A stretch of 64,000 nucleotides of DNA from a virus. Lineage: Duplodnaviria; Caudoviricetes. The translations under genes and the position numbers were made by a program. The stretch lies in the IMG/VR virus record IMGVR_UViG_3300028833_000077; one strand, written 5' to 3'. Shown here one piece after another: positions 6,404 to 45,150 of the stretch; positions within the stretch are counted from its first letter, which is position 1, and the number at the start of each line of letters is the position of its first letter. The notes beneath the pieces are model-generated. The model made no database searches. It was not told where the DNA came from and was given only the letters and a program-made list of their open reading frames with translations.

Positions 6404-6928
6404 ATGAGTAAAATTTTTGGAAACATTTCGTATTATTCTCCAGTTAAGGAGGATGTGAGCAGAATCGTAATCAGCTATGATTTTGCTGAAGTGGGAGATG
6501 GTGAGAATGCCACTTGGCATGAGATTGCCTTCTACAAGAGACTTAATCCAAAACCAAGTCTCCAGCAAATCAAGGCAGCTGTCATTGCAGACATTGATAG
6601 TCAGACTGATGCAAGGATTCTCAGTGGCTTTGTTTGGGAGCCTGCCAGTGGCGGAGATTCCATACCTGTATGGCTTTCTCTTGAGAACCAGTTCAATTTC
6701 AAGTCAGCCTATGACTTGGCTGTTCAGAAGCAGGGTGCAACACTGCCTGTCACCTTTAAGATGGGTGAGGATAGTGAAGGTACCCCAGTGTATCATACCT
6801 TTGAGACTATGGAGGATGCAGATGACTTCTACCTCAAGGCAGTTGGCTACATCAACCAGTGCTTGAACGAAGGTTGGGTCAGAAAGGATTCCATTGACTG
6901 GTCTGTCTATGAGCAGGTGTTAGAATAG
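6404..6928 (+). CDS. Hypothetical phage protein (DUF4376-like, possible fibre assembly helper)
   Basis: VWLSLENQFNF..AYDLA...LPVTFK pattern; ATG 6404 preferred over the overlapping 6386. Confidence 0.5.
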   Translation: MSKIFGNISYYSPVKEDVSRIVISYDFAEVGDGENATWHEIAFYKRLNPKPSLQQIKAAVIADIDSQTDARILSGFVWEPASGGDSIPVWLSLENQFNFKSAYDLAVQKQGATLPVTFKMGEDSEGTPVYHTFETMEDADDFYLKAVGYINQCLNEGWVRKDSIDWSVYEQVLE

Positions 6929-6949
6929 GATTCCTTCAAACTATAGTTT

Positions 6950-6986
6950 AAACAAGGGTATGTCTAAATGGGCATACCCTTGTTTT
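6950..6986 (+). terminator. Intrinsic terminator closing the DGR unit
   Basis: AAACAAGGGTATGTCT-AAAT-GGGCATACCCTTGTTT stem followed by T-rich tail. Confidence 0.8.
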
Positions 6987-7013
6987 GGTTATGTTTTGTA
7001 CATATAAGTAATT

Positions 7014-7082
7014 GATAAACAGTTGTTTATCCGTTTTTCTGGCATTGTTTTCCTCCTATCATTATTCTCCTTACCTTTGCAG
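7014..7082 (+). promoter_or_regulatory. Promoter (TACCTTTGCAG at 7072) with CTGGCATTGTTT at -33 and upstream palindrome
   Basis: GATAAAC-AGTT-GTTTATC palindrome 7014-7031; architecture shared with 8602-8665. Confidence 0.7.
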
Positions 7083-7102
7083 TGTATTAAATTTATATTA
7101 CA

Positions 7103-7441
7103 ATGGAATCATTAGAACAATTGAAGAAGGAGCAGTATGAGGCCAAGGCAAAGCTTCATGAACTGCTGGAGACAATCAACAGTGAGGAGTACTACACCCT
7201 CACACCGTCAGAGAGGAACCTCATCAACCAGAGGAGAATGGCTCTTGAGATGTATGTAAATGCACTGTCAAGGAGTGTATATGACCATGACAGCTACTCA
7301 TTTGATGCATCAGGTGCACTATGGCCTTTGCTGATGTCAGGTGTGTTTTCAAATATGAATACTGCACCGTCCAGTGTGGATGCACTCAAGAAGGCATTGG
7401 ATGAAAAGGACTTTGAGGATGAATCAGGACATGATGATTAA
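7103..7441 (+). CDS. Hypothetical helical protein (crAss001_48-like)
   Basis: LEQLKKEQYEAKAKLHELLETINSEEYYTL..ERNLINQRRMALEMY helical-hairpin pattern. Confidence 0.5.
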   Translation: MESLEQLKKEQYEAKAKLHELLETINSEEYYTLTPSERNLINQRRMALEMYVNALSRSVYDHDSYSFDASGALWPLLMSGVFSNMNTAPSSVDALKKALDEKDFEDESGHDD

Positions 7442-7553
7442 CCAGCTTGCACACATTACAGGCAAGTCTAGGAAGGAGGTCATAACTGCCCTCAAGCAGA
7501 TGAGCAGCATGCCTGATGTCAAGAAGATGTTGAAGTATGTCAGAAAGGGATGA
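7431..7553 (+). CDS. Small 40-aa ORF absent from the ORF track (MMINQLAHITGKSRKEVITALKQMSSMPDVKKMLKYVRKG)
   Basis: Fills the gap between neighbours and overlaps both ends; phage-like codon usage. Confidence 0.5.
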   Translation: MMINQLAHITGKSRKEVITALKQMSSMPDVKKMLKYVRKG

Positions 7554-7740
7554 GGCATGGTTGCTTGACCATATGGACCAGTTGTTGCAGTTGGTGTTTG
7601 AGAACAACCGCATGCTGATTGACCTGTGCCATGTGGTCAACATACACCTTGCTAATCATGACAAGGAGAATGAGGATGACTTTGGCAGGAATGTACTGGC
7701 TAACATTGTATCCTCAACCATAGGGTTTAACAGGCCTTAG
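7537..7740 (+). CDS. Hypothetical protein
   Basis: 67-aa ORF in operon context. Confidence 0.6.
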   Translation: MSERDEAWLLDHMDQLLQLVFENNRMLIDLCHVVNIHLANHDKENEDDFGRNVLANIVSSTIGFNRP

Positions 7741-7787
7741 TGTTTTCCTTAACCCTGATGTACTCTGAGTAGTATACTATATCTTTG
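7727..7787 (+). promoter_or_regulatory. Promoter (TATCTTTG at 7780) with phased TTA elements
   Basis: TTAA/TTAG/TTAA at -53/-43/-31. Confidence 0.65.
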
Positions 7788-7807
7788 TAGCATAAAAGAA
7801 GAGTAGT

Positions 7808-8095
7808 ATGTTTGATTTCAAGAAACTGATTATCAAGTACCTCAAGGACATCATCCGAAGGTTGGAGGATGATGACTGTGAGATTACTGACACTGAGGCA
7901 ATGGACATCCTCAAAATCATCAACCATAGGCCCATGAGTAAGGCAAAGGCATGTGAATACCTCAACATGTCAAGGAGCAAGTTTGATGAACTTGTCAGGA
8001 GCAATGCTCTACCAAAAGGCAGGAAACGTGTGGGCTTTAAGGAGCTCGTATGGTTTGAGGATGAGTTGGAAGCACTAACATTAAAAAAGAGATAG
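7808..8095 (+). CDS. AlpA/excisionase-like HTH DNA-binding protein
   Basis: MSKAKACEYLNMSRSKFDELVRSNALPKG..W pattern. Confidence 0.7.
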   Translation: MFDFKKLIIKYLKDIIRRLEDDDCEITDTEAMDILKIINHRPMSKAKACEYLNMSRSKFDELVRSNALPKGRKRVGFKELVWFEDELEALTLKKR

Positions 8096-8096
8096 T

Positions 8097-8222
8097 ATGG
8101 CAACAAGAAAGACTAAAAGGGGAGGCTCTATGGCAGTCAAGGCTGGTTATACCAAAAACAAAAGACGGTATAGCTGTGGTGGAAAACTCTATAAATGTGG
8201 AGGCAAGCTCAAGAGTAAGTAA
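8097..8222 (+). CDS. Small basic 41-aa peptide with two YxCGGKL motifs (absent from the ORF track)
   Basis: MATRKTKRGGSMAVKAGYTKNKRRYSCGGKLYKCGGKLKSK; ATG 1 nt after the upstream stop. Confidence 0.6.
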   Translation: MATRKTKRGGSMAVKAGYTKNKRRYSCGGKLYKCGGKLKSK

Positions 8223-30552: not shown

Positions 30553-31263
30553 ATGACAGCAAGGGAAATCGTTTATAGTATCCTAAATTTATCCAAGGTA
30601 TCTTCCAGTGATGACAGCTGGGTGACGGAGGACTTGGTGTTCTTTCTCTGCAAGAAGTACCGCAGCTTCCTCATCAAGAAGGAGAAGGATAAGGAGAAGG
30701 CACAGTCTGAGTCTGTGGAAACATCTGAGTATCAGCAGATTTGCCTTGACTTGGAGAAGGTTCCTGCCATTGATGGAGACCCTTGTACTGGAGGATATTA
30801 CCTCAGGAGTGTACAAGAAGTCCCTTCCATCCTTGAGGGCACTGCACCCCAGGTATACCCGGCAGACTTCTACCAAGGCATCAACATATCATTCGTACCC
30901 AAGGAGAGGATGAGGTTCGTAGGTACTAACAAGTTCCTTCAGAACATCATATATGTTTCACTTGGAGCAGATAAGCACATCTATCTTAACAGCAGCAATC
31001 CCCAGTTCTTCTATCTGAGGCAGCTAAGGATGAATGCAGCCTTTGAGGACATTGAGAAGGCAGCAGACCTCTTGTGCGATGATGAGTGCAACTGTACTGC
31101 ATGTGACTGGATGGACATGGAGTTCCCCATGAGGGAGCACCTTGTTCCTGTCATGATAGAACTGGTGGTCAAGGATTTACTTGGGGTAAAATATCAAGCA
31201 ATTGATTACAAGAATTCGGCAAGTGATGACTTGTCCCAGCATCAGCCAACTAAGGAGGGTTAA
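30553..31263 (+). CDS. Tail ring / connector protein
   Basis: YQQICLDLEKV, R.RFVG.NKFL.NIIY; synteny before IHF-like and tail tubular genes. Confidence 0.6.
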   Translation: MTAREIVYSILNLSKVSSSDDSWVTEDLVFFLCKKYRSFLIKKEKDKEKAQSESVETSEYQQICLDLEKVPAIDGDPCTGGYYLRSVQEVPSILEGTAPQVYPADFYQGINISFVPKERMRFVGTNKFLQNIIYVSLGADKHIYLNSSNPQFFYLRQLRMNAAFEDIEKAADLLCDDECNCTACDWMDMEFPMREHLVPVMIELVVKDLLGVKYQAIDYKNSASDDLSQHQPTKEG

Positions 31264-31818: not shown

Positions 31819-32580
31819 ATGGTAACTGAGATACAATACACAAGTATAAAGAGAGTGCTGGATGACCTGTTGGAGCATCCATTGCTTTCAGACCTGACAC
31901 TGGAGCAGGCAGTCAGACATACATTGAGGTTCCTCTCACTGCACGGCTATCCTGAGTTCTACAAGGACAACACGGCTGATGTGGAGATACATGACTTCAG
32001 GGGACTGCTGCCATGTGACCTCATCAGTATCATTCAGGTGAGGGACAAGGATTCCCATATCTGCCTAAGAGCCATGACGGACAGTTTCAACCTAGGATTG
32101 AGGGAGCACCATGTTCCTGAGAGGCACTACCATCCTAACACAGGAGACATCCATAATGCCTACATACCTCATCCCCATCATCACCATGGAGAGATGACCT
32201 TCAAGACCCAAGGGAGAGTCATATACACCTCTTTCCCTGAAGGTGTTGTAGAGATTGCCTACAAGGGCATACCAGTGGATGAGGATGGCTTCCCACTGTT
32301 GATAGACAATGAGACTTATCTTGCTTGTCTGGAAGCCTACATCAAGAAGCAGGTGTTCACAGTGAAGTTTGATACAGGAAAGCTTGCTGCCCCCATACTG
32401 CAGAATGCCCAGAGAGACTATGCATTGCTTGCTGCCAATCTACAAACTGAGCTCACAACACCCTCGGTGAATCAAGCCGAGGCATACAGTAGAATGATGA
32501 CACACCTGATACCAAGGGTGAGGGAGTTTGATAATTCTTTCCGTGATGTAGGCAGTCGTGAATATTTAAAAAGGCACTAG
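31819..32580 (+). CDS. Tail tubular / ring protein (P22 gp4-like role)
   Basis: I.DFRGLLPCDL, TFKTQG..IYTSF.EG.VEIAY..IPVDEDGFPL. Confidence 0.7.
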   Translation: MVTEIQYTSIKRVLDDLLEHPLLSDLTLEQAVRHTLRFLSLHGYPEFYKDNTADVEIHDFRGLLPCDLISIIQVRDKDSHICLRAMTDSFNLGLREHHVPERHYHPNTGDIHNAYIPHPHHHHGEMTFKTQGRVIYTSFPEGVVEIAYKGIPVDEDGFPLLIDNETYLACLEAYIKKQVFTVKFDTGKLAAPILQNAQRDYALLAANLQTELTTPSVNQAEAYSRMMTHLIPRVREFDNSFRDVGSREYLKRH

Positions 32581-32581
32581 C

Positions 32582-33736
32582 ATGGATAGATATACAGTAT
32601 ATAAGCATACTTCTCCCACCAATAAAGTATATATTGGTATTACAAAGAATAAAAAAGCTAGAAACAGGTGGAAGTATGGTCATGGCTATAAGCATAATGC
32701 ATATTTTTACAATGCTATTAAAAAGTACGGATGGAACAATATCAAACACGAAATACTGGCTACTAACCTTACCTTAGAAGAAGCCTCTATTATGGAAAAA
32801 GAGCTTATTGCTCTATATAAAAATAAAGGTGTTTGTTATAATATAGCTGAGGGAGGTACTGATGGAAATACTCAAAAGAGGACTGAGGAAGAAAAACAGC
32901 ATCTTAGTGACTACTTCAAAGAGTATTGGAAAACTCATGAAAATCCTTTCAAAGGCAAACATCATAAAGAAGACAGTTTAGCTGTAATGAGAGAAAAAAA
33001 CAAAAAGCGTTGGAAGGATAACTATGCTAAGATGTATGCGCAGGTAATTGTAAAAGTGAGAATTGGAGTATTTAATATCCTAACACACGAATATCAAGAG
33101 TTTGCATCAGAAAAGGAAGCAGCAGAAAGCTATGGGATAAGCGAAACTACATTTAGAAGGCATGTTAACAATGGTAGTATCTACAAAAATTTTATTTTTA
33201 TTCCTATAGATACTCTATCTTTTGAGGAAGCTCTTATTAAAGCATATAATAGAGAAAAAATGAATATCCATTGTGGAGGGCAAGAGATTGCAGTAGTGCA
33301 ATTAACTTTGGATGGTCAATATGTAGCGACTTATCCTTCCATTAAACAGGCTGCTATAGAAACAGGTTTGGATGATACTGGAATAGGTGAGTCATGTAGA
33401 GGTAATAGAAAACAATCATCTGGTTATTTTTGGATGTTTGAGTCTAAATACTTACATTATAAGGAAGAAGGAAAGCTTGAGTCAGAAATAAAAAAGATGA
33501 AGGAGGATTTAAATAAGCGCAAAGAAATACATGGTACTTATATTTTACAGTCAACAGTAGAGAATATACCTGTAGAAGTCTATATAAGTGGTAAGAGTAT
33601 TACAAGGAAACATGGATTTGATAGTAGTACTATCAGTAAATGCTGCAGGGGAATATTCCATAAAATGTATGGTTATAAATGGGAATACATAACAAAAGAA
33701 GAGTATGAAAAATTTAAGACTATCTTGGCAGCATAA
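32582..33736 (+). CDS. Free-standing GIY-YIG homing endonuclease with NUMOD3/NUMOD1-like repeats
   Basis: YTVYKHTSP.NKVYIGIT...RW; E..LI..Y....YN; NPFKGKHH; I..CC.G......GY.W repeats; very AT-rich. Confidence 0.88.
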   Translation: MDRYTVYKHTSPTNKVYIGITKNKKARNRWKYGHGYKHNAYFYNAIKKYGWNNIKHEILATNLTLEEASIMEKELIALYKNKGVCYNIAEGGTDGNTQKRTEEEKQHLSDYFKEYWKTHENPFKGKHHKEDSLAVMREKNKKRWKDNYAKMYAQVIVKVRIGVFNILTHEYQEFASEKEAAESYGISETTFRRHVNNGSIYKNFIFIPIDTLSFEEALIKAYNREKMNIHCGGQEIAVVQLTLDGQYVATYPSIKQAAIETGLDDTGIGESCRGNRKQSSGYFWMFESKYLHYKEEGKLESEIKKMKEDLNKRKEIHGTYILQSTVENIPVEVYISGKSITRKHGFDSSTISKCCRGIFHKMYGYKWEYITKEEYEKFKTILAA

Positions 33737-33867: not shown

Positions 33868-35547
33868 ATGAGTACGACAACAAGTGACCTCTTGAACAGA
33901 GCCAATATAATCAAGAATGAGACTCTTGAGGGCAAGAACTCTGCTGTACGTGTGGGCAGTCTGTTTTGGGACATTATCTCAAAGATGGAAGGCAACACCA
34001 GCAAGCTCTCAACCCTTGAGGAACTCATCAACTCAGGTGGTTCAAGATACAGCAATGTGAGGGTGACTCCAGTGTATACGAATGGTGTCTTGATTGCTAC
34101 CATCAGGGTAGGTGTTCAGGACTATGCCATCTATGCACCAGGCAAGGGTGGCTCTGGTAGTGATTCTGATTCAGATGGCTATGATGACAGGGAACTCCGC
34201 AGGGAGATTGACTTGATTAAATCCAATCTTGACAATATCCTTGAGAGGGAGAAAGCAGGCATCAAGGATATGGTTGAAGAAATCCTTGCTGGCAAGAACT
34301 TCATCAGTGGCTGGCAGGCAGGATGGTATGAAACACTCAAGAGCTACCTTATCTCTGTAGGCGTCCTTGGAGCTGACGGAGTAAGCAAAGGCTGGGCATA
34401 CCTTGATACCAAATACAACGACCTTGAGGCAGCAGTTAATAGCCTCAGGAGAATCGGTGAGGACAATCAAGGTCTTTATGAGACTCTGCAGTCACAGTTG
34501 AATCTTTTCATCCAGAATGAATTTGGTGAATTGAGTACTGCTGTTGGAGAGCTTAAAACAAGATACGCATTGACTGCTGATGATAAGACTGTATTGAAGT
34601 GGTTGACTGCCCAGCTTAGGGTTCAGGCAGGTGCGAATGGCTCACTTGCACAGCTGTTTGCTACTGCTAGTGACAAGGCTCGTTTGCAGGATGCTTTGGC
34701 ACTTCTTGAGGCCAGAGTGGATGATATAGAAGGAAACTATGTGTCTACAGCTCGTCTTATTGCTCAAGTAAGGAATGAGATAGATGGTCGTATCAGTACT
34801 GGCGGTCTTATTACAACTGCTTCTCTTGATAGGGCAGTCACAACTCTCTTTGCTGAGAGTGGAGACAATACATCCAGTGCAAGGGCTGCAATAGACCTGA
34901 TAGTTGAGAATGGTATTTCCAGCATTGTGGAAAGGGCTGACATTATACAGGCTATAGCTAACAGGATTGTGATTGACGGCTCACAGATAGACATTACAGC
35001 TGACCAGATCAATGCTGCAATGGAAAGTCTTAGGGTTAAAGTATCGGACATCATTATTGGAGATGGTAAAAGACAGGGTTCTGACTATTATGACCGTATG
35101 TTAATACATACCTACAAGGAGCCAGGTAGTGATAAGATTCTTGGCATGGAGCTTCTGTTTGGTAATTTCCAAATAAACAATGCAGGAGATGTTACTATGT
35201 CTAAGCCCGGTCTTAGGTGCAGATTTAACTACTACTACTTGGATGCTCCCAAGATTGTTTCTAGCCAAATCATGCTTCCAACCCAGAACCTAAACGGTCC
35301 TTCCTATCTGGATTTCAATAAAGATAGTGTTATCAGGTGGTTTAATACTGTAGGAAATCCAGAGACAAATCAGACTGGAGACGAGTATGGCATTGATGCA
35401 AATGGCAACATGGGAACCAATGAGACTGATGGTGCTGTATTAACTGATAAGAGTACAGTAGGCAATAGTGCCAATGGTTATATTACCTTTGAGGGAGATA
35501 CCATTGTCATACATGGTAACCTCAAAATAAATGATAGAACCATATAA
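33868..35547 (+). CDS. Putative tail fibre/spike protein
   Basis: IKNET..GKNSA.RVG N-terminus, long coiled coil, I.A..I.I beta-repeat C-half. Confidence 0.55.
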   Translation: MSTTTSDLLNRANIIKNETLEGKNSAVRVGSLFWDIISKMEGNTSKLSTLEELINSGGSRYSNVRVTPVYTNGVLIATIRVGVQDYAIYAPGKGGSGSDSDSDGYDDRELRREIDLIKSNLDNILEREKAGIKDMVEEILAGKNFISGWQAGWYETLKSYLISVGVLGADGVSKGWAYLDTKYNDLEAAVNSLRRIGEDNQGLYETLQSQLNLFIQNEFGELSTAVGELKTRYALTADDKTVLKWLTAQLRVQAGANGSLAQLFATASDKARLQDALALLEARVDDIEGNYVSTARLIAQVRNEIDGRISTGGLITTASLDRAVTTLFAESGDNTSSARAAIDLIVENGISSIVERADIIQAIANRIVIDGSQIDITADQINAAMESLRVKVSDIIIGDGKRQGSDYYDRMLIHTYKEPGSDKILGMELLFGNFQINNAGDVTMSKPGLRCRFNYYYLDAPKIVSSQIMLPTQNLNGPSYLDFNKDSVIRWFNTVGNPETNQTGDEYGIDANGNMGTNETDGAVLTDKSTVGNSANGYITFEGDTIVIHGNLKINDRTI

Positions 35548-36112: not shown

Positions 36113-38173
36113 ATGGAGATAAATGGAAAGACCCTAATACTGGAACCAGGTGAGGAACTGACCATCAAGGTCAGGGCCAATCAGCCTATGCCAGAACCTG
36201 AAGTACCTGAACAGCCTGAAGACCCTTCAGGAGCAATCAGCTTCCCTGACCTCATCGAGGAGTTCAACCTTGTGTTGGAGAAATATGGCTTCAATGCAGT
36301 GTTTGAAGGTACTGAGACTTGGGTATACCTCAAGGAGATGTATGATGCAGCTCTGGATGAATGGAACACCAATGCCCATGACTTCCTCAGTGAAAAGACA
36401 TATCCTGAGGTGTATGACTATCATGGAGACAATGACAGCTATGAGAAGAACTTCCTCACACTGAATGCCATGACCTCATGGCTGATGGCTATGTGCCTTA
36501 CTGAGATTGTACCTCTCTACAGTGAGTCTTACAACTCACAGACAGCATTGTTCCGCGAGGCATTTGACTTGGGCGGAGGAATAACAGTCGCACTCTATGA
36601 TGAGTATACAGTCAAGGGAGACCCCATGATTGCAAGGCTAGCAGCAGGATGTGTGTATGCCACTATCAGGGGTACTAAGACATTCAGCTACATTGACCTC
36701 TTGAGAGAAGAGCTTGGTGGGTTGCCCATCAGTGGTTCCTCATGGGAGGACTTGGGATACACCAATACCATGCTGACAGATGACTTGGGTAGAAGAGGCT
36801 ATATGATGCAGAATCTGGGATACCTTGTCAACACTCAGGTATTCCTTCCCAATGCTCCAGGCCCAAGAATTGAAGGTACTACAGTGTGTGAGCTGGCACA
36901 GCCTTGGGAGGATGGGCAGCCTTCATGGCAGTATCATCTTGCTACTGGCAACTACTTGGCTGATGAAGCCATCAACAGGCATATGGTAGACCATTGGAAC
37001 ATGATGGCACAGACTCCATTGTCAGAGTGGAACAGCTACTCTGATGAGAAGAAGGACAGGCTCATCAATGCGGCAGCCACAGTTACCTGTACCTATAATT
37101 ATATGTTCGGTACACCTAAGCCTGTAATCCTTGTGCTTGAGAACAACAGACTTCCTGTTGTTGATGGCTATCCAAGGTATGTGTTTGAGGAGGATGCTGA
37201 CAGCAACCTTGTCATTGACGGACCATTCTCTGACTTGGCAGGAATATACAGATACAATGCAGATGGGAATGAAACCACTGAGGAGATGTTCCTCAAGACA
37301 GTGCTTGACATAGCAGACAACTGCAGGTTCCCAACCCAGGATCCTAACTACGGAAGATGCAGACCTGGTTGCAGACCTACTAGGGAAGGTGGAGAGCTCG
37401 GCAGTACACATGGTGCTGCGGAGAATGAGATATACAACATCTCCATTGCCTCCATTGTAGCTGACAATGATGCCCAAAGGGATAAGATTGCAGGTGAGGA
37501 TGGATGGGCAGCAGACTCTCCAAGGAGCTATGTGTCTGGCCATTCAGCACAAATCATCACCATGGCACTCATGCTGGGGCAGATGTCACCAGACAAGATG
37601 CAGTACTACATGAGGAGGGCCTATGAGTACTCAGTCAATAGGAGCATTGCAAGGTTCCATTGGAACAGTGACTGTATCCTTGGAAGGCTCTACGGTACCA
37701 TGATATTGCCCATACTCAATGCCATGGAGGGACTTCATGATGGATATGAGGCAACCAAGAGAGCTGTTGTGAATGGTGTCCAAGGAGATGTCAAGTTCAA
37801 GCTTACCATAGAGAATACCACTCCCAATGATATAACCCTTGATGGGGATATGGTGTTTGTGCTTGCCAACCCTGACAAGAAGGGCAACTATTATGGATGG
37901 GAAGGTGCATACAACAGGACAGGACACATCAGATTCTGCTCTTCTGCTGTCACCATTCCTGCTGGAGGCTCCAAGGTGTTCAGTGTGGATGCCACTAACT
38001 CAGAGATTGCCTTGAGAGGCAGGAACTGTCTTGTCCCTGACTTGCTCCCAGTGGCAGACAGGCCAAGGAATATATTGCTGTATGTAGACGGCAACTCAGA
38101 GGCTGTGTTGGCAGACAACATGGATCCAGACATTGTGTTTGAGGATGGAGGTAACTATAAGCTGACCATATAA
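36113..38173 (+). CDS. PAP2-superfamily (class A acid phosphatase-like) protein with degenerate N-terminal repeat and C-terminal beta-sandwich
   Basis: Motifs RCRP, SYVSGHS (37526-37546), NRSIARFHWNSD (37637-37672). Confidence 0.8.
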   Translation: MEINGKTLILEPGEELTIKVRANQPMPEPEVPEQPEDPSGAISFPDLIEEFNLVLEKYGFNAVFEGTETWVYLKEMYDAALDEWNTNAHDFLSEKTYPEVYDYHGDNDSYEKNFLTLNAMTSWLMAMCLTEIVPLYSESYNSQTALFREAFDLGGGITVALYDEYTVKGDPMIARLAAGCVYATIRGTKTFSYIDLLREELGGLPISGSSWEDLGYTNTMLTDDLGRRGYMMQNLGYLVNTQVFLPNAPGPRIEGTTVCELAQPWEDGQPSWQYHLATGNYLADEAINRHMVDHWNMMAQTPLSEWNSYSDEKKDRLINAAATVTCTYNYMFGTPKPVILVLENNRLPVVDGYPRYVFEEDADSNLVIDGPFSDLAGIYRYNADGNETTEEMFLKTVLDIADNCRFPTQDPNYGRCRPGCRPTREGGELGSTHGAAENEIYNISIASIVADNDAQRDKIAGEDGWAADSPRSYVSGHSAQIITMALMLGQMSPDKMQYYMRRAYEYSVNRSIARFHWNSDCILGRLYGTMILPILNAMEGLHDGYEATKRAVVNGVQGDVKFKLTIENTTPNDITLDGDMVFVLANPDKKGNYYGWEGAYNRTGHIRFCSSAVTIPAGGSKVFSVDATNSEIALRGRNCLVPDLLPVADRPRNILLYVDGNSEAVLADNMDPDIVFEDGGNYKLTI

Positions 38174-38187
38174 TTTTTAAAGACGGT

Positions 38188-41100
38188 ATGAAGAAGCAGG
38201 TTGGATTCAAGACCAAGGGAATGAATAGGGACATGAGTGTCTCTGCATTCAATCAGGAGTTTGCCTTTGAGAACATGAACCTCAGGCTCTCCACCAATGA
38301 AGGCAACACTCTCATGAGCTGGGTGAATGAGAAGGGCACAAGTCCCATCACCATTTCCAGAGGCATAGTGGGAGTGGAGAATTTCATCAATGGGTGTGTG
38401 GTAGGCACTGCTGTACTCAATCATTTCCTTATACTGTTTCTGACGAAGTGTTGGGATGAGGGCACCAAGGACTATTATGACTCCATCGTAAGGCTTAAGT
38501 ATGAGGGGACGGACAAGAACAGCATGGTAGCCAAGGTGTTGTACAGTGGTCTTGAGAAGGGCAATCTGGGTTTCATGGTGGAACATCCTCTTGAGACCCT
38601 TGTGTCCTTTGAGAGTGACCATATCCAGAAGGTGTACTGGACAGACGGCATCAACCAGCCTAGGCTCATCAACATTGCCCCAGAGAATGATGGGCACATA
38701 GGCAGATACACCAACACTTCCTTTGACTTTATACCGACCCTACAGCTGAATGAGGACATCCATGTAAAGAAGATACTTGGCGGAGGGGGAATGTTCGCAC
38801 CTGGTGTCATCCAGTATGCCTTCACCTATTATAATAGATATGGGCAGGAATCCAATATATTCTATACTACACCACTGTACTATATCTCTTATGCTGATAG
38901 GGGAGCCTCTCCTGAGGACAAGGTGGACAATGTGTTCAGGATTACTGTAGACAAGCCAGACAGCAACTTCGACTACCTGAGGATATACTCCATCCAGAGG
39001 ACAAGCATCAACAGCACTCCAATGTGCAAGAGGATTCAGGACATTGAGGTGGCTGAAGAACCTAAGAGCGTCAGCTTCACGGATACTGGAACAGCAGGTG
39101 ATTCCATAGATCCTACAGAACTTCTCTACAAGGGGGGACATGGTATTCTTGTAGGCACTATGGAGCAGAAGGATGGAACACTGTTCATGGGAGACATTGT
39201 CACACCTAGCATCAAACATCCTAAGGCAGGGGTCAGCTTGGAGACATCCACAAGGACATTCTATCCCAATGTAGTGTCTACCGACAGCTATGAGTATGCT
39301 AATCAGCTTACCTCATATAAAGATGCCACCAAAGAGGAGAGTGTTCCATGTGCAGGCTTCAAGAAAGGCAACTTCTATAGATGTGGTGTGCAGTTCCAGG
39401 ATGAGCATGGTAGGTGGAGTGATCCTGTATTCCTTGAGAATGTGGAGATAGACATCTCGCCTGAGGCTGTCACCAATGTCAAGGAGGAACCTGAGGGAAC
39501 CTATGACTTTGAACTACGTGAAGTCATCATAGCCAACAACAGCCAGTATCCTCTTGTAATCTCCAACATAGCCAAGTTCGCATTGGTTGGCAAGGATGGG
39601 AAGTTCGTGTTTACAGTGAAATTGGGAAACTTTGACTCTCGCACTATAGAGTCAGGTATGCAGGATGTGTATAACAAGGCAGTCATACTGGATGCCAAGA
39701 AGTACAGTGGCCTCAAGTTCTGCACAAAGGATGAGTACACCAAACTAGGCATGGAGAGCAATGTGTCACTCAAGGCCTATGGTTCCAAGAGAGGATATGT
39801 CCTTACACCCATTACAGCAGGAACTGCCATCAACAGCAGTTCTACCTACACGATTGAATGTACGGAATCATTTGATCCTGCACCTCAGGAAGTGCCGTTT
39901 GATGAGGACTTGGATGGACTGTTGATGTACTTCAATCCTATACTGAAGGCAGCAGGCACCAAAGAAATCACCAATACAGCCACTCCATTGACTTATGCCT
40001 ATCTTAAGGCGGCCTATGACTTGGCAGACACTGAATGGAGCAGTAATGCCCACTCGTTCTTCAGTGCAACAACATATCCTGAGATATACAACGGCAGTGA
40101 CTATCGTGGGACCAATGACACCTATGAAAAGAATGGTACAAGCCAGTTGGCCATGCAGTCTTGGCTGGTAGCCATGTGCCTGTCTGAATTGGCACCTACT
40201 TCAGGAACCAATACCAACACACAGACGGAATTGTTCAAGAAGGCCTATAATTTGATTGATGGCTCTGGTGATGGGAAGAAAGTTCCCCTCTATGGAGGTT
40301 ACACCTTGAAGGGAGACCCTATGATTGCCAGATATGCTGCAGGAGCCATATATGCCCTCAACAGGGCACCCAAGAGTTTCTCCGACATGCAGCAGATGAG
40401 GACTGAGCTCTGGGGAGACAATGCAGATCATTCCATCAATGCCAGTGACTGGTCAGGACTGGAATATTCACCTGACAACTACAAGTTGTCCATGGAGAAT
40501 CTCGGCTATCTTGTCAACACTGATGCTTTCCTGCCAGGGGCATTCGGGCCTTGGGCATCAGGAGAGTTCTACAGTAGCTTCCCCTATGGACAGTCTTCAG
40601 ACCAGTACTACAACAGTCCTACAGAGGCAGGTAGGTTCTGGGAAGCCAATAACTACAAGGTGGATGTCAATATAGACAATACCATTACAGATACCCTGAA
40701 TGGTTATATAGCATATTCTCCTGATGGCAATGGGGGCTATACCTTTGCAGGAAATAAGGAGAAGCTCCAGAGGCTTTTTGAGTCTGCTGTCATAGGAAGG
40801 GCCACTGACTTTGTGTTCTTCGGTAGGAAAAGACTGAAGTACACTAATACTATAGCAGCTACATTGGTAGGACATAATGTGTCACTGCATCGTTTCAGTG
40901 AAACTGATGATAGTATTGCCGATAGTAATGTCTATGAATATACAGGCCCATTCTATTCTGAGCAGCTTCAGGACTATCTGTTCAGCAACCAGGGAACCTA
41001 TACGGCTACAGCTGAAGGCAGTAGCATCACTCAGGAGCTGACTTTCTATGAGAGGAAATCTCCCATGCTGTTCTTGGATGTTGTCAAGGACATTGCCGAC

Positions 41101-44100
41101 AATGGAAGGTATCCCTCACATTCAGCTTATAAGAGAATCAGGCCTTGCGGCAGTAACCAAGGAGGAGAGACCAGGGCGCAGAACCAGACAGATGCTCTTG
41201 GTGGATTCGAGTGTGGCAGCCTTACTTCCCTCTTTGCAGACACCAGGGACCAGGCAGATGCTTGGGGTGCAGGCCTTGAGCAAGATGACTTCCCCGGTGA
41301 TAGCTATGGAAAGTCCTATCCTTCAGGACACAGCTCCCAGGTATGGGCATTGGCTATGTATCTTGGACAGATGAAGCCCTCCAGCATTACTGAGTACATG
41401 AGGAATGCATACAGGTTCTCGGTGAACAGGACTATAGCAAGGGCGCATTGGAATTCTGATGTCATGTATGGCAGGATGTTTGGTACGATGGTGCTTCCCA
41501 TCATTAATGCCATGAGTGGCCTCCAGTCGGATTATGCATCCTTCAAAAGTGCCATGGGAGAAGGTGGAGGTGATGTGCCGTCAGGTGATGTCAGTGTCAA
41601 TATTGTCATTGACAACCAAACAGGAGCTGATGCCTGTATTACAGGCGAACTCAGGATATATGTGGAAGATGGTACTGGTGGGTATGTCGGAATGAACATG
41701 CATACACCAAAGTTCATCTCAGGTAATGACACTTACTATATTCCCCAAGGAAGGACAGAGTACTCAAGTCTTGCCTGTTCGGTCAATGGTGACTCTGTCT
41801 CTGCCAGCAGTTTTGTTGGAAACAGCATGAGCAGCCTTAGGAGTCCTATAGTGTATGGTTTTGATGGACAGAACCACCACAGTACTTTGTTTGCCGTTGA
41901 CATGCTGTCAGGTACATTCAGCAATGATGGTACCTATATACTTGTACTTAGGCAGGGAGAGGCATATGGCAATATGGTATGTACTACAAGCAGAACACTC
42001 AGTAAAGGTATGCTTAAGGCTCCAACCCCAGCTGCTACCAGGAGTGGGGAAGATGCAGATGCCCCAGTGGAGACCATTGAAGTAATAGAATCTCCAAAGG
42101 CGGATATGACAGTCACTGTTCCAACCATAAAAGGCCTCATTACCAGTGAGGAGGCTAAGAGGCTGTATAGAGAAGAAGGATACAGGAAAGTCAGGGCTGT
42201 AGTGGTCTACCCAGACATGCAGAACAGGAAGGTCATCTGCCAAGGTGTAGCCTGTCCTACACTGTATACTCTCAACAATAGAGGTGAGGGAAGCTCTGAT
42301 GAATTGCAGACCAAAAGCATATATGCACAATCCTCATGGTTCTTCAGGCCTAGATACTCTAATACAAAATACAGTGAGGACACCAATGTTCCTGCCAGTG
42401 CCCCTGGTGACTATATTGGGTACATGAATGCTGGAAGTTCCTCTACTTTGGCAGTAATATCGGGTCCCGTATGGACTATAACTGTCGATGGAGTACAAGG
42501 TTGTAATCCAACCTACATCAAGAGAACTGAGGTTCAAGGTTCATTCAATCCAGGGAACAAGTTCAAAGTGGAGTGGAGGACACTTACCTACCATGTGCCT
42601 GACATTGTGTTTGATGACAGCATGCTTGCCTTTGACTATGGCTCTGGTGGTCTGGATGCCTATCAGGTGGGTAATGTCTCCTTTGTGAGGACCCTCTCCG
42701 ACATAGACATACGGACAGAGACTCCAACCATCAGTAAGAATGCCTCTGGATTCATCAAGAAGTCCTTTGTCAGGGGTGATGCATCAGGCATCATAGCAGG
42801 GTTGTTCTACGAGGACTATGCTGTCAATGACAGTACAGGCGAGAAGGAGGAGAAGTTCAAGCCTTTTGTATCCCAGAGTGTTCCCATGAAGTGGATGGTC
42901 TATCCTTGGAATAGGACAGGTTCCCTCAACAACGATATTTCCAGACCTGCTGGATACGGTGTGCAGACAGCTGTACTCAAGCAGAAGATCATATCCAATC
43001 TCAGGGTGACCAACTCTGTCTTTGAATTCGAAGGGGATAAGTCATCCCTTGGATTCAAGGCACAGCTGTTCTACAGTAATGAGCCTGAGATAATAAAGCT
43101 TGACTTGAAGGACAGCAAGGGCTCCAACATCTATATGGGCAACATAGACACCATGCTTATTCCAGATGAGCCTGATGGCCTGTACTTCTCCATATGCAAA
43201 GACCCTGACGATGAATATGCCCCTACTCCTCAGTTTACTGACAAGGTATATTGGAAGACTTTTGCCAAGAACAATAAGACAGGTGAAACGAGTGACAAGG
43301 GTGCTTGGTATTTTGGAGGGGATTCATGGGAACGGATGGACACTTGTTTTGGTCAGGACCTCGGTGATGAGTATACAGATACTGTATTAAGCAAAGGACA
43401 GGTAAGGATGAAGTATAAGTCCACTCCGCATCTGGTGCTTACTGGAAGCAGCAGTCTTGCCACATACAATACGGAAGGGTGCCTCCCCATATTGGAGCTC
43501 AGAAGAAACATTGAGAGAGCCAAGGCCTTCGGTGGGAACTCCAAGGACATCCTGCATGAACAGCTATGGATTCCTTGCGGAGAGCCTGTCAGGCTTTGGG
43601 AAGGCCCTCAGGACGAACCTGCATTCAAGGATGTGGAGTTTGAATATTCTTGGGGTGATACCTACTATCAGAGGTGGGATTGCCTGAAGACCTATGCCTT
43701 CACTCCTGAGGACATCAATCAGGTGGTGGAGATAGGCTCCTTCATGCTTGAGACCTATGTCAACATTGACGGTAGGTATGATAGGAACAGAGGACAGTTG
43801 AGCAATCTCTATATGTCACCTCAGAACTTCAACCTACTCAACCCAGTGTATTCCCAGTTGAACAACTTCTTCACCTACAGGATACAGGATGATGAGTTCT
43901 ACAAGCTAAAGAAATACCCCAATCAGATAACATGGTCAAAGACGAAGACCTCAGGTGCTGATGTTGACATGTGGACCAATGTGACACTGGCATCAATCCT
44001 TGAGCTTGATGGTGACAAGGGTACTGTCAGGAAGCTCATTAGGTTTAACAACTATCTGTTCTCCTTCCAGGATATGGGTATATCCCAGATTCTCTACAAT

Positions 44101-45150
44101 GACAATGTGCAGATCAATGCAGCCGATGGGGTGCCCATTGAGATAGCCAACTCTGGAAAGGTACAGGGTAAGGATTATAAGAGTGACACCATTGGATGCA
44201 GCAACAAATGGAGTCTGGTCAAGACACCTTCGGGCATCTACTTCATGGATTCCGTCAATAAGGGGATATTCATGTTCAATGGGCAAGTGAATAACCTGTC
44301 AGGCTCTTTAGGCATGAATACATGGTGCAAGGAGAATATCCCAGACAGCTCTGTCGATTGGACTCCCTATGACTACTTGATTAAAAATGATGATACTGAG
44401 ATATTTGTAAATGGGTTCCAGAACTTTGTCGCATACTATGACAAGTTGAATCAGGATATACTGTTCATCAACAAGCAGACAGCTTTGGCATTCTCAGAGA
44501 GACTGGGTACATTCACATCATTCTATGACTATGGAGAGACCTCGTATCTCTGCAACTTGCAGGATACAGGACTGTGGCTCAAGGTTGGTACAGAGGAGAA
44601 GGAGGGTGTGGATACTAAGCCGCATGTGGAATATACTACTGCTCTTTGGAAGCATCAGGGCGGAGAGTACTGCAAGTTCTTTGGAGAAAGTAAGTCTTAC
44701 TGGATGACACTAGTAGGCAATCCTGAGCCTCAGTTTGACAAGATATTCACTAACTTGGAGTTCAGGGCAAGTGTAGATGGTGATGGTGAGTTGAATCGTT
44801 ATACAGGCAAGTTCACCCCTGCACTCCCCTTTGACTCCTTGGAGACATGGAATGAGTACCAGCATGGTATTGCGAATCTTGCAAATATGAGAGGCCATGA
44901 CCAGTTCAGGCATCATACTACTGACAACAATGGTACTCTCAAGAGGAAGTTCAGGATATGGAGGTGTGACATTCCTAGAGACAATGCAGAACTCAATACT
45001 GATGCTGCATTGGGCATCTTCAGGAAGACCAAGCCACGCAGGCTGGACAGGATGAGGAACCCTTGGCTGTACCTCAAGCTTCAGAAGGATGCAGCAGATA
45101 CCATGCCCAGAACTGAAATACACGACATTGTAGTATCATATTTCCTATAG
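38188..45150 (+). CDS. Tail stabilization / muzzle protein (P22 gp10-like role) with a large inserted PAP2 module
   Basis: GMNRD.S, AFENMNLR, KVYWTDG.NQPR, GDTYYQRWDCLKT, ET.VNIDGRYD, RKFRIWR..IPRD..RMRNPW flank an insert carrying SYPSGHS and RTIARAHWNSD. Confidence 0.85.
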   Translation: MKKQVGFKTKGMNRDMSVSAFNQEFAFENMNLRLSTNEGNTLMSWVNEKGTSPITISRGIVGVENFINGCVVGTAVLNHFLILFLTKCWDEGTKDYYDSIVRLKYEGTDKNSMVAKVLYSGLEKGNLGFMVEHPLETLVSFESDHIQKVYWTDGINQPRLINIAPENDGHIGRYTNTSFDFIPTLQLNEDIHVKKILGGGGMFAPGVIQYAFTYYNRYGQESNIFYTTPLYYISYADRGASPEDKVDNVFRITVDKPDSNFDYLRIYSIQRTSINSTPMCKRIQDIEVAEEPKSVSFTDTGTAGDSIDPTELLYKGGHGILVGTMEQKDGTLFMGDIVTPSIKHPKAGVSLETSTRTFYPNVVSTDSYEYANQLTSYKDATKEESVPCAGFKKGNFYRCGVQFQDEHGRWSDPVFLENVEIDISPEAVTNVKEEPEGTYDFELREVIIANNSQYPLVISNIAKFALVGKDGKFVFTVKLGNFDSRTIESGMQDVYNKAVILDAKKYSGLKFCTKDEYTKLGMESNVSLKAYGSKRGYVLTPITAGTAINSSSTYTIECTESFDPAPQEVPFDEDLDGLLMYFNPILKAAGTKEITNTATPLTYAYLKAAYDLADTEWSSNAHSFFSATTYPEIYNGSDYRGTNDTYEKNGTSQLAMQSWLVAMCLSELAPTSGTNTNTQTELFKKAYNLIDGSGDGKKVPLYGGYTLKGDPMIARYAAGAIYALNRAPKSFSDMQQMRTELWGDNADHSINASDWSGLEYSPDNYKLSMENLGYLVNTDAFLPGAFGPWASGEFYSSFPYGQSSDQYYNSPTEAGRFWEANNYKVDVNIDNTITDTLNGYIAYSPDGNGGYTFAGNKEKLQRLFESAVIGRATDFVFFGRKRLKYTNTIAATLVGHNVSLHRFSETDDSIADSNVYEYTGPFYSEQLQDYLFSNQGTYTATAEGSSITQELTFYERKSPMLFLDVVKDIADNGRYPSHSAYKRIRPCGSNQGGETRAQNQTDALGGFECGSLTSLFADTRDQADAWGAGLEQDDFPGDSYGKSYPSGHSSQVWALAMYLGQMKPSSITEYMRNAYRFSVNRTIARAHWNSDVMYGRMFGTMVLPIINAMSGLQSDYASFKSAMGEGGGDVPSGDVSVNIVIDNQTGADACITGELRIYVEDGTGGYVGMNMHTPKFISGNDTYYIPQGRTEYSSLACSVNGDSVSASSFVGNSMSSLRSPIVYGFDGQNHHSTLFAVDMLSGTFSNDGTYILVLRQGEAYGNMVCTTSRTLSKGMLKAPTPAATRSGEDADAPVETIEVIESPKADMTVTVPTIKGLITSEEAKRLYREEGYRKVRAVVVYPDMQNRKVICQGVACPTLYTLNNRGEGSSDELQTKSIYAQSSWFFRPRYSNTKYSEDTNVPASAPGDYIGYMNAGSSSTLAVISGPVWTITVDGVQGCNPTYIKRTEVQGSFNPGNKFKVEWRTLTYHVPDIVFDDSMLAFDYGSGGLDAYQVGNVSFVRTLSDIDIRTETPTISKNASGFIKKSFVRGDASGIIAGLFYEDYAVNDSTGEKEEKFKPFVSQSVPMKWMVYPWNRTGSLNNDISRPAGYGVQTAVLKQKIISNLRVTNSVFEFEGDKSSLGFKAQLFYSNEPEIIKLDLKDSKGSNIYMGNIDTMLIPDEPDGLYFSICKDPDDEYAPTPQFTDKVYWKTFAKNNKTGETSDKGAWYFGGDSWERMDTCFGQDLGDEYTDTVLSKGQVRMKYKSTPHLVLTGSSSLATYNTEGCLPILELRRNIERAKAFGGNSKDILHEQLWIPCGEPVRLWEGPQDEPAFKDVEFEYSWGDTYYQRWDCLKTYAFTPEDINQVVEIGSFMLETYVNIDGRYDRNRGQLSNLYMSPQNFNLLNPVYSQLNNFFTYRIQDDEFYKLKKYPNQITWSKTKTSGADVDMWTNVTLASILELDGDKGTVRKLIRFNNYLFSFQDMGISQILYNDNVQINAADGVPIEIANSGKVQGKDYKSDTIGCSNKWSLVKTPSGIYFMDSVNKGIFMFNGQVNNLSGSLGMNTWCKENIPDSSVDWTPYDYLIKNDDTEIFVNGFQNFVAYYDKLNQDILFINKQTALAFSERLGTFTSFYDYGETSYLCNLQDTGLWLKVGTEEKEGVDTKPHVEYTTALWKHQGGEYCKFFGESKSYWMTLVGNPEPQFDKIFTNLEFRASVDGDGELNRYTGKFTPALPFDSLETWNEYQHGIANLANMRGHDQFRHHTTDNNGTLKRKFRIWRCDIPRDNAELNTDAALGIFRKTKPRRLDRMRNPWLYLKLQKDAADTMPRTEIHDIVVSYFL
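39898..41560 (+). other. PAP2-like module inside the muzzle gene, paralog of 36113-38173 (boundaries approximate)
   Basis: Shared blocks TYPE.Y..Y.G.ND.YEKN, SWL.AMCL.E..P, KGDPMIAR.AAG, M.NLGYLVNT..FLP, DIADN.R.P, SY.SGHS, SVNR.IAR.HWNSD. Confidence 0.85.

Follow-up and report, generated by a model that had tools for sequence, protein, structure and literature searches.

In a crAss-like phage, the muzzle protein is interrupted in frame by a cassette containing what structure prediction indicates to be a complete class-A acid phosphatase of the PAP2 superfamily. The gene (P0002; 38188–45150, 2320 amino acids) lies in a window of 64,000 nucleotides, the whole stretch of DNA analysed here, and all features described are on its forward strand. 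Adjoining it upstream is a gene for a free PAP2 protein of 686 amino acids (P0001; 36113–38173). Both reading frames had been proposed, from sequence alone, in an earlier note, and both held as stated. The fusion itself is shown in the assembled sequence. We lean towards the view that the graft makes the muzzle a tail-tip enzyme hydrolysing phosphate esters of the host surface; its activity, its substrate, its display on the virion and a role in adsorption or ejection are inferred, as they were in the earlier note. Crassvirales are the dominant gut phages, most of their hosts are uncultured, and the way in which the tail tip makes contact with the cell is not known.

P0002 was assigned as a muzzle gene from the open reading frame call, Pfam, BLASTP and synteny. 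It matches crAss_MUZ (PF25731; E = 6.7e-264; residues 1321–2132 on the C-terminal side) and crAss_MUZ_C (PF25729; E = 1.7e-12; residues 2159–2265), and Pfam places both of these and PAP2 on this single protein. Residues 1–413 align to residues 3–415 of crAss001 gp44 (1371 residues) and residues 1311–2319 to gp44 416–1370, giving full-length homology over gp44 residues 3–1370, the C-terminal domain included. The frame is uninterrupted, and the flanking muzzle homology rejoins at gp44 415/416, within the IG2 domain. The insert comprises about 895 residues (residues ~416–1310; nucleotides ~39433–42117), refining an earlier estimate of about 880 residues at about 39470–42100. On the domain map of Bayfield et al. 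(2023; PMC10172136), the part preceding it (residues 1–415; 38188–39432; 41% identity to gp44 3–415) consists of the ring-joining domain, the propeller, IG1 and the start of IG2. The part following it (residues 1311–2320; 42118–45147; 34% identity to gp44 416–1370, with Pfam support) holds the remainder of IG2, the crass domain, propeller blades and the C-terminal domain. The tail stabilization/muzzle identity claimed for these two parts was thus upheld by Pfam and the gp44 alignment.

The gene neighbourhood is that of a tail module, in the order Ring2, Ring1, ..., muzzle, cargo 1, cargo 2 and an RNA polymerase-like gene: P0002 is preceded by Ring 2 and Ring 1 and followed by cargo 1, cargo 2 and a 2362-residue protein. 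The last is likely a gp47-type RNA polymerase, an assignment made without a family-library search. GC content is 0.47 and even along the whole muzzle gene. In crassviruses, muzzle length varies through insertions in IG2 and the crass domain, and the muzzle tip has been proposed as the cell-contacting part (PMC10172136). P0002 is, in the assembled sequence, a true Crassvirales muzzle with a lineage-specific domain graft, and by analogy with crAss001 (PMC10172136) it would form a hexameric cap at the tail tip. The host of this crAss-like phage is possibly a rumen or gut Prevotella, the genus being no more than a lead.

From its N-terminus, the insert consists of a beta domain, a Pro-rich linker, a helical domain, the class-A acid-phosphatase (PAP2) fold and a beta-sandwich. 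Beta domain 1 (residues 420–565; 39445–39882), recognised from beta strands modelled with low confidence, is followed by the linker FDPAPQEVPFDE. The helical domain (residues ~570–745; 39895–40422; pLDDT mostly above 90) is the counterpart of the N-terminal helical domain of P0001. The phosphatase fold (residues ~753–1125; 40444–41562) is supported by structure match, PDB sequence matches and invariant alignment columns. The beta-sandwich (residues 1129–1253; 41572–41946), with beta strands in the model, shares its family with the C-terminus of P0001, and a low-complexity linker of low pLDDT (KAPTPAATRSGEDADAPVETIEVIESPKADMTV; residues 1254–1310; 41947–42117) leads back into the muzzle. The model is too poor at beta domain 1 and at the linkers to fix the geometry of display. 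A muzzle fragment from elsewhere (P0183) has, at the corresponding site, both beta domains and no enzyme, its same-position region being 37% identical to beta domain 1; no full-length muzzle other than P0002 was found to have beta domain 1. A relationship that would make beta domain 1 a third such sandwich, beside the two C-terminal ones, was not shown (hhalign probability 13%).

The PAP2-type domain proposed earlier for both the insert and its neighbour held in both, and each of the motifs listed for the two proteins is present. P0002 has YKRIRP, SYPSGHS (residues 1043–1049; 41314–41334) and RTIARAHWNSD (residues 1081–1091; 41428–41460), and P0001 has GRCRP, SYVSGHS and RSIARFHWNSD. The Pfam PAP2 score is 34.9 bits for the muzzle (residues 1022–1108) and 27.8 bits for P0001, a narrow pass against the gathering score of 27.2. 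Structure prediction and structure comparison give both proteins a complete PAP2/class-A acid-phosphatase fold: against Salmonella PhoN (2a96_A) the insert scored Z 16.2 (rmsd 2.7; 210 of 217 residues aligned) and P0001 Z 17.1 (rmsd 2.8; 213 of 217). Three further class-A enzymes reached Z 13.6–15.7, well above the next structural matches. Those were the membrane PAP2 enzymes LpxE and PgpB at about 8.6–10, and vanadium haloperoxidases scored Z 4.7–8.4. The best Foldseek matches of the insert were class-A phosphatases throughout, its PDB sequence matches to these enzymes reached E = 1e-9, and the family profile matched PhoN at E = 7.5e-15. The kinship suggested earlier, which ranged from class-A enzymes over LpxE and LpxF to vanadium haloperoxidases, is therefore narrowed, the predicted fold being far closest to the soluble class-A phosphatases.

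Conservation of the catalytic residues is shown by alignment. In P0001 the set is R405, R415, R417-P418, S475-G476-H477, R510, H516 and D520, and in the insert R974, R983, R985-P986, S1046-G1047-H1048, R1081, H1087 and D1091. R405, R415, R417, S475, G476, H477, R510, H516 and D520 (P0001 numbering) are invariant in 112/112 complete copies of the module. In motif 2, S-G-H is preceded by Pro in the muzzle copy, whereas P0001 has Val there. Motif 3 is invariant as R510-x5-H516-x3-D520 in P0001 and R1081-x5-H1087-x3-D1091 in P0002, its leading Ser being mostly Asn. Motif 1 keeps its R-P, and the Lys of K-x6-R-P is never present at the equivalent position, seven residues upstream, which is occupied by Asp in most members and by His in the muzzle copy. 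An invariant Arg 11–12 residues upstream (R405/R974) could conceivably replace this Lys, its three-dimensional placement not having been shown.

P0001 begins with a short beta segment and a Pro/Glu-rich linker, continues with a helical domain and the class-A phosphatase fold, and ends in a beta-sandwich (AlphaFold pLDDT 90.2, pTM 0.79). The beta segment of about 20 residues and the linker PEPEVPEQPEDP (residues 1–40; 36113–36232) are disordered in the model. Their pattern is kept across the family, with CPHCG variants or else a beta domain of greater length in their place in some members, and they might serve as a docking peptide, a possibility that rests on inference. The helical domain (residues ~41–205; 36233–36727) is likely a degenerate PAP2-like repeat lacking catalytic residues: hhalign of family slices paired residues 118–198 with residues 477–549 (probability 80%, E = 1.4e-5). 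Comparison of this domain with PDB structures gave no clear match. The phosphatase fold (residues 209–558; 36737–37786), identified by its match to PhoN, contains an inserted beta subdomain. The Fn3/adhesin-like C-terminal sandwich (residues 557–686; 37781–38170) scored 25.3 bits for Pfam fn3_5, under the cut-off, and weakly matched Bacteroides adhesin-like domains (Z 5.2). A family HMM detected this sandwich in P0001 (E = 2e-47) and in P0002 (residues 1129–1253; E = 5e-22), which bears out the C-terminal similarity noted before. Against a 94%-identical ortholog (in L005), P0001 has a dN/dS of 0.118. PHROGs held no family for it.

The earlier note had also called P0001 a paralog of the insert. 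The two PAP2 modules align over 633 residues with 37% identity (E = 5e-92), and the relationship held in a refined form, P0001 being a distant paralog from another subclade and not the source of the insert. A FastTree phylogeny of 113 modules puts the insert and P0001 in different clades, that of the insert having 14 members (local support 98), although long branches leave the exact sister of the insert uncertain; its closest relative, P0096, shares 52% identity. Two other origins were considered and rejected. A recent tandem duplication is ruled out by these separate clades. An intein or intron does not fit, the insert being homologous to stand-alone PAP2 proteins and having no Hint-type junctions. 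For a 457-residue gene of the relative L005, considered as a possible split-off piece of the insert, kinship is limited to the N-terminal beta-sandwich.

The fusion is rare, and this too is shown. No second protein combining a muzzle with PAP2 was found in 5.8 billion protein clusters, 1.84 billion representatives and 50,697 phage records. An insert common to most crAss-like muzzles would have counted against the earlier note; it was missing from all 70 muzzle-bearing INPHARED phage records and from every other muzzle of two very large protein libraries. A megablast search of the 9-kb region against the 50,697 phage records gave no match, and a tblastn search of these records with the insert returned only PhoN-like stretches of about 80 residues, in three of them, so that none contains the enlarged PAP2 module family. 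A scan of IMG/VR with the C-terminal junction peptides gave no match either. The fusion has been seen in one population only: the only other contig fetched with the gene is 100% identical in DNA and hence provides no independent confirmation, JGI 3300031992 containing such an identical contig, and a 91–94% identical relative has a different muzzle allele without the insert. In the literature searched we found no paper on a muzzle–PAP2 fusion, in keeping with the earlier note, which knew of none, nor on PAP2-fold phosphoester hydrolysis by a virion enzyme.

The module is part of a sizeable uncharacterised phage family, often joined to tail-fibre-type domains. At least 60 clusters at 50% identity were present in the library searched, and other members are fused to Big_2, collagen, LRR_5, BACON and Peptidase_S74 domains. 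One protein of 3370 residues has three copies of the module, with catalytic residues intact in all three. The tail-module context is also shown in other phages: the module fills the Ring1-to-muzzle slot on two other crAss-like contigs, and at another locus its gene adjoins a collagen/S74 fibre gene. A cellular relative, a 510-residue PAP2 protein of Prevotella sp. khp7 (L016, 5854–7386), has a lipoprotein-type signal, from which we infer an extracytoplasmic enzyme.

We propose the following mechanism. A complete soluble class-A-type PAP2 enzyme with a beta domain on either side would be nested in an IG2 loop of the muzzle, and because the muzzle is hexameric, six copies would ring the tail tip. 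With the muzzle at the outer membrane, the enzyme would cleave phosphate esters such as those of phosphorylated capsule, LPS or lipid-A-type groups. His1087 would act as the nucleophile, forming a phospho-histidine, with His1048 as general acid and Asp1091 as relay; Arg985, Arg1081 and probably Arg974 would grip the phosphate, and the beta-sandwiches may assist in holding the glycan. P0001, with the same catalytic set and C-terminal sandwich, would probably be a second enzyme docking separately on the virion. Standing against the enzyme model are the non-conserved motif-1 Lys and the absence of data on activity, substrate or virion proteomics.

Among alternatives, the module might be a tail-displayed binder, a lectin for phosphorylated glycans or lipids that fixes host range without turnover. 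The missing motif-1 Lys, the adhesin-like beta-sandwiches flanking the module and its occurrence in fibre-type proteins, which typically serve to bind receptors, speak for this. We consider it unlikely, however, since the two His, every Arg and the relay Asp, which a pure binder could do without, are invariant across the diverged copies, and all three copies in the 3370-residue protein retain the catalytic residues.

Equally doubtful is that the module, in the manner of LpxE or PgpB, acts on lipid-linked phosphate of the outer membrane (lipid A 1-phosphate or undecaprenyl-pyrophosphate-linked glycan) and so loosens the membrane for ejection. It shares superfamily and catalytic motifs with these enzymes, which are its next-best structural matches (Z 8.6–9.9), and the muzzle is the proposed outer-membrane-touching part. 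In contrast, the soluble periplasmic phosphatases match the fold far better (Z 16–17), and a 19-residue Kyte-Doolittle scan for a transmembrane helical core of the LpxE, LpxF or PgpB type found none in either protein, the maximal means being 1.06 for the insert and 1.31 for P0001.

A vanadate-dependent haloperoxidase-type enzyme is very unlikely. The active-site residues are common to both enzyme classes, and the chemistry thus cannot be excluded by computation; the layout of two bundles, one a dead and one a live repeat, recalls vanadium chloroperoxidase. Yet the structural scores of the vanadium enzymes lie far below those of the class-A enzymes, and the PDB gave no sequence match to them, while class-A phosphatases matched at E = 1e-9 to 1e-15. 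Haloperoxidase chemistry requires peroxide, which is scarce in gut or rumen habitats, and this counts further against it. Hardly more credible is that the fusion arose by chimeric assembly or represents a dead-end allele without function from one sample, for although it is a singleton in very large libraries and the only other contig reads identically, two in-frame junctions lie in a 6.9-kb open frame of even GC, muzzle homology restarts exactly where it was interrupted, the insert's own beta-domain scaffold is shared with P0183 at the same site, the catalytic residues are intact, and a PAP2 module only 37% identical to P0001 leaves no room for repeat collapse.

The preferred reading thus remains a tail-tip phosphatase. 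For the view that the whole of this uncharacterised PAP2 family of phages consists of virion enzymes acting at the cell surface, an intact enzyme fused to a muzzle is the strongest argument at sequence level. The fusion points to an undescribed phage route for attacking phosphate groups of the bacterial surface, activity and target being inferred. It suggests a new receptor chemistry and brings phosphoesterases into the set of phage tail enzymes relevant to host-range engineering. A bolder reading, for which the balance falls slightly short, is that these phosphatases form an unrecognised class of virion-borne surface-modifying enzymes, wide among phages of gut and rumen Bacteroidota, carried on fibres in many and on the muzzle here. 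If it were true, phosphate-bearing surface glycans or lipids would be receptors, or barriers removed before ejection.

Compared with known class-A acid phosphatases (Salmonella PhoN, 2A96; Escherichia blattae, 1D2T; Shigella, 8YC1; M2-32, 9HTZ), the phage module is likewise soluble, matches the whole helical fold of about 215 residues (Z 14–17) and has the PSGH-type motif, R-x5-H-x3-D and the motif-1 RP. It differs in having about 130 extra residues within the fold, including the beta subdomain, an added N-terminal helical (probably dead-repeat) domain and C-terminal beta-sandwich, and neither the motif-1 Lys nor a signal peptide; moreover, it is phage-encoded and here embedded within a virion protein. 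The Prevotella sp. khp7 lipoprotein and related Prevotellaceae proteins share the enlarged architecture, a helical domain followed by PAP2 (motifs YGRLRPGC, SYPSGHA and RTIARYHWNSD in the khp7 protein; 32% identity over residues 59–537). The khp7 protein is, however, cellular, has a lipoprotein-type signal peptide (FFVSC) and no C-terminal beta-sandwich, and its gene neighbours encode hydrolases rather than virion proteins. P0002 resembles the crAss001 gp44 muzzle over the full length of the latter (34–41% identity) and in gene neighbourhood, but has 2320 residues against 1371, the surplus of about 895 being the enzyme cassette; no enzymatic insert has been described for any muzzle protein in the literature searched. 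As in tail-associated receptor-modifying enzymes, namely tailspike depolymerases, esterases and endosialidases, an enzyme domain sits on a tail protein that meets the envelope, and other copies of the module are carried by fibre-type proteins that include collagen, Big_2, BACON or Peptidase_S74 domains. Unlike in those systems, the chemistry of P0002 would be PAP2 phosphoester hydrolysis, and its carrier is not a fibre or spike but the gatekeeper of the tail tip.

The 2320-aa muzzle protein P0002 (38188-45150) matched crAss_MUZ (E 6.7e-264) and crAss_MUZ_C in Pfam, with a PAP2 domain in the middle of the protein at 34.9 bits; P0001, the free 686-aa PAP2 protein (36113-38173), scored 27.8 bits (the Pfam PAP2 cut-off is 27.2 bits). 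The earlier note had quoted PAP2 motifs for both proteins, and this held, every motif being present at its assigned position. When aligned with gp44, the 1371-aa muzzle protein of crAss001, P0002 residues 1-413 corresponded to gp44 3-415 and residues 1311-2319 to gp44 416-1370. Since homology stops and resumes at gp44 residues 415/416, the extra ~895 residues of P0002 (aa ~416-1310, nt ~39433-42117) have been inserted cleanly at one point. According to the published domain map, this point falls in the IG2 domain, before the E-F loop; other crassvirus muzzles vary in length via insertions into IG2 and the crass domain, and the muzzle tip has been proposed to touch the cell (PMC10172136).

The window derives from a crAss-like phage, and the genes of this region all lie on the + strand. 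Tail ring 2 (30553-31263) is followed by a 181-aa gene, tail ring 1 (31819-32580), a GIY-YIG/NUMOD homing endonuclease (32582-33736), a 559-aa gene (33868-35547), a 149-aa gene, P0001 and P0002. Two small genes, cargo 1 and cargo 2 come next, and then a 2362-aa ORF that is likely a gp47-type RNA polymerase, an assignment made from position and size alone. The endonuclease gene sits in a low-GC stretch (0.377) and is missing from L005, the contig of a close relative, where ring 1 is directly followed by a 529-aa gene. The 559-aa protein gave a weak, sub-threshold match to the CVNH lectin domain (E 0.0064) and the 149-aa protein a weak Ig-like match; both are conserved in L005.

To characterize the fold, we predicted the structure of P0002 aa 415-1315 from 64 family sequences and compared the model, which is confident for aa ~570-1130, exhaustively with known structures. 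The insert matched Salmonella PhoN with a Z score of 16.2 (rmsd 2.7 Å, 210/217 residues aligned) and three further class-A acid phosphatases with Z 13.6-15.2. The same class-A phosphatases were the best Foldseek matches, and sequence searches of the PDB matched class-A phosphatases only, with E 1e-9 for the insert alone and 7.5e-15 for the family profile. P0001 yielded a better model (pLDDT 90.2), of which aa 209-558 matched PhoN with Z 17.1 and 213/217 residues aligned. P0001 and the insert have a common layout of an N-terminal helical domain, a PAP2 fold with a beta subdomain inside it, and a C-terminal beta-sandwich, the last being recognised by a family HMM in P0001, P0002 and two other phage proteins.

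Among 5.8 billion clusters searched by word index, P0002 was the sole protein joining muzzle and PAP2 domains. The combination was likewise absent from the results of an exhaustive HMMER search against 1.84 billion representatives; the longest matches, scanned against Pfam, contained PAP2 and lacked crAss_MUZ. The insert was present in none of the 70 phage records with a muzzle homolog, and its first beta domain was found in no other full-length muzzle. None of the literature searched linked PAP2 or acid phosphatase to Crassvirales or crAss, and one review goes no further than noting that 'phosphatase domains' have been annotated in certain tail spike subunits (PMC10136315).

Both muzzle flanks in L005, free PAP2 gene included, share 91-94% DNA identity with the window. 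Between them, L005 6787-12468 replaces window 38172 to ~44735 with a different cassette, consisting of a 457-aa gene and a 1576-aa muzzle that is without the insert and only ~50% identical to P0002 at the protein level. The mosaic boundary is sharp, high muzzle identity being limited to the last ~140 codons. Therefore, the muzzle is an exchangeable allele.

When the modules were placed in a tree, the insert clustered with modules that form part of long proteins and with P0096 (52% identical), a free 758-aa protein whose gene immediately follows ring 1 on a different crAss-like contig. The tree separated the insert from neighbouring P0001. At the same site, P0183, a fragmentary muzzle from another sample, carries the first beta domain, a Pro-rich linker and the beta-sandwich with no enzyme. 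Thus, either the enzyme sits between the two beta domains of an insert type that already existed, or it was lost from that type. In free PAP2 proteins, the enzyme is likewise preceded by a Pro-rich linker and followed by this sandwich; because these parts are common to the muzzle insert, we infer that recombination through them is a plausible route for the graft.

The beta-sandwich that ends PAP2 proteins is itself a mobile module: it starts the 457-aa accessory protein beside the L005 muzzle (6787-8160; E 4e-36) and lies within the IG2 insert of P0183 (aa 186-326; E 3e-30). On its 3.5-kb contig (ERZ27257205), the P0183 muzzle was called as three consecutive ORFs of 149, 504 and 407 aa, possibly split by frameshifts, sequencing errors or another genetic code.

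The PAP2 module family comprises ~106 clusters of ~690-aa proteins at 90% identity, with ~60 representatives scoring below 1e-30. All contexts read so far are phage-like: the crAss-like contigs L005 and L009, a 381-kb contig (L004), a phage with a T4-type portal (L008), a TAG-recoded phage on a 130-kb contig (L007) and a tape-measure phage with a diversity-generating retroelement. The T4-type-portal phage encodes a 3370-aa protein (L008 10001-20113) whose three tandem PAP2 modules belong to different subclades when placed in the family tree. The recoded phage encodes a 1448-aa Big_2 and PAP2 protein (L007 10001-14347) that translates only if TAG is Gln, and its gene adjoins a collagen/Peptidase_S74 fibre gene. 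Fusion partners of the module include Big_2, collagen, LRR_5, BACON and Peptidase_S74 domains, which fibres and spikes typically contain. Prevotellaceae yielded cellular relatives, which suggest this group both as the source of the module and as the likely host group. Prevotella sp. khp7 carries a chromosomal 510-aa homolog (L016 5854-7386) with a lipoprotein-type signal (MKKILLFVLPFFFVSC), an Asn/Asp-rich stretch after the Cys, and hydrolase genes as neighbours. An 887-aa family member on a 197-kb Prevotellaceae MAG contig shows gene order like that of a phage contig (L010), so this locus may be a prophage.

On balance, we lean towards a tail-tip phosphoesterase acting on the host envelope, its activity, substrate and display all being inferred. 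Six muzzle-borne copies would stand at the tail tip and attack phosphate groups on the envelope while the phage adsorbs or ejects its genome. The second, free enzyme (P0001) would probably be attached elsewhere on the tail via a short N-terminal segment.

That the module serves for binding only is unlikely. Among its 113 aligned copies, one of them truncated, Arg415, Arg417, Ser475, Gly476, His477, Arg510, His516 and Asp520 (P0001 numbering) are invariant in all 112 complete copies and Arg405 in all 113; the P0002 equivalents are Arg983, Arg985, Ser1046, Gly1047, His1048, Arg1081, His1087, Asp1091 and, for Arg405, Arg974. This conservation does not extend to the motif-1 lysine. The P0001 gene, with dN/dS 0.118 against a 94%-identical ortholog, is under purifying selection. 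A lipid-directed phosphatase is likewise improbable: the insert matched LpxE with Z 8.7 and PgpB with Z 8.6, and neither P0001 nor P0002 has a hydrophobic segment. A haloperoxidase (Z 4.7-7.6 against the vanadium enzymes) is very unlikely, although an active site common to both enzyme classes leaves this chemistry possible. We give similarly little credence to the fusion, single as it is, being a chimera or a dead-end allele; parts of the insert also occur in P0183.

The helical domains preceding the PAP2 folds (36233-36727 in P0001 and 39895-40422 in P0002) resemble the catalytic half without its catalytic residues (hhalign probability 80%, E 1.4e-5). Helical domain and PAP2 fold may together form a dead-plus-live tandem repeat, an arrangement that recalls the two bundles of vanadium chloroperoxidase.
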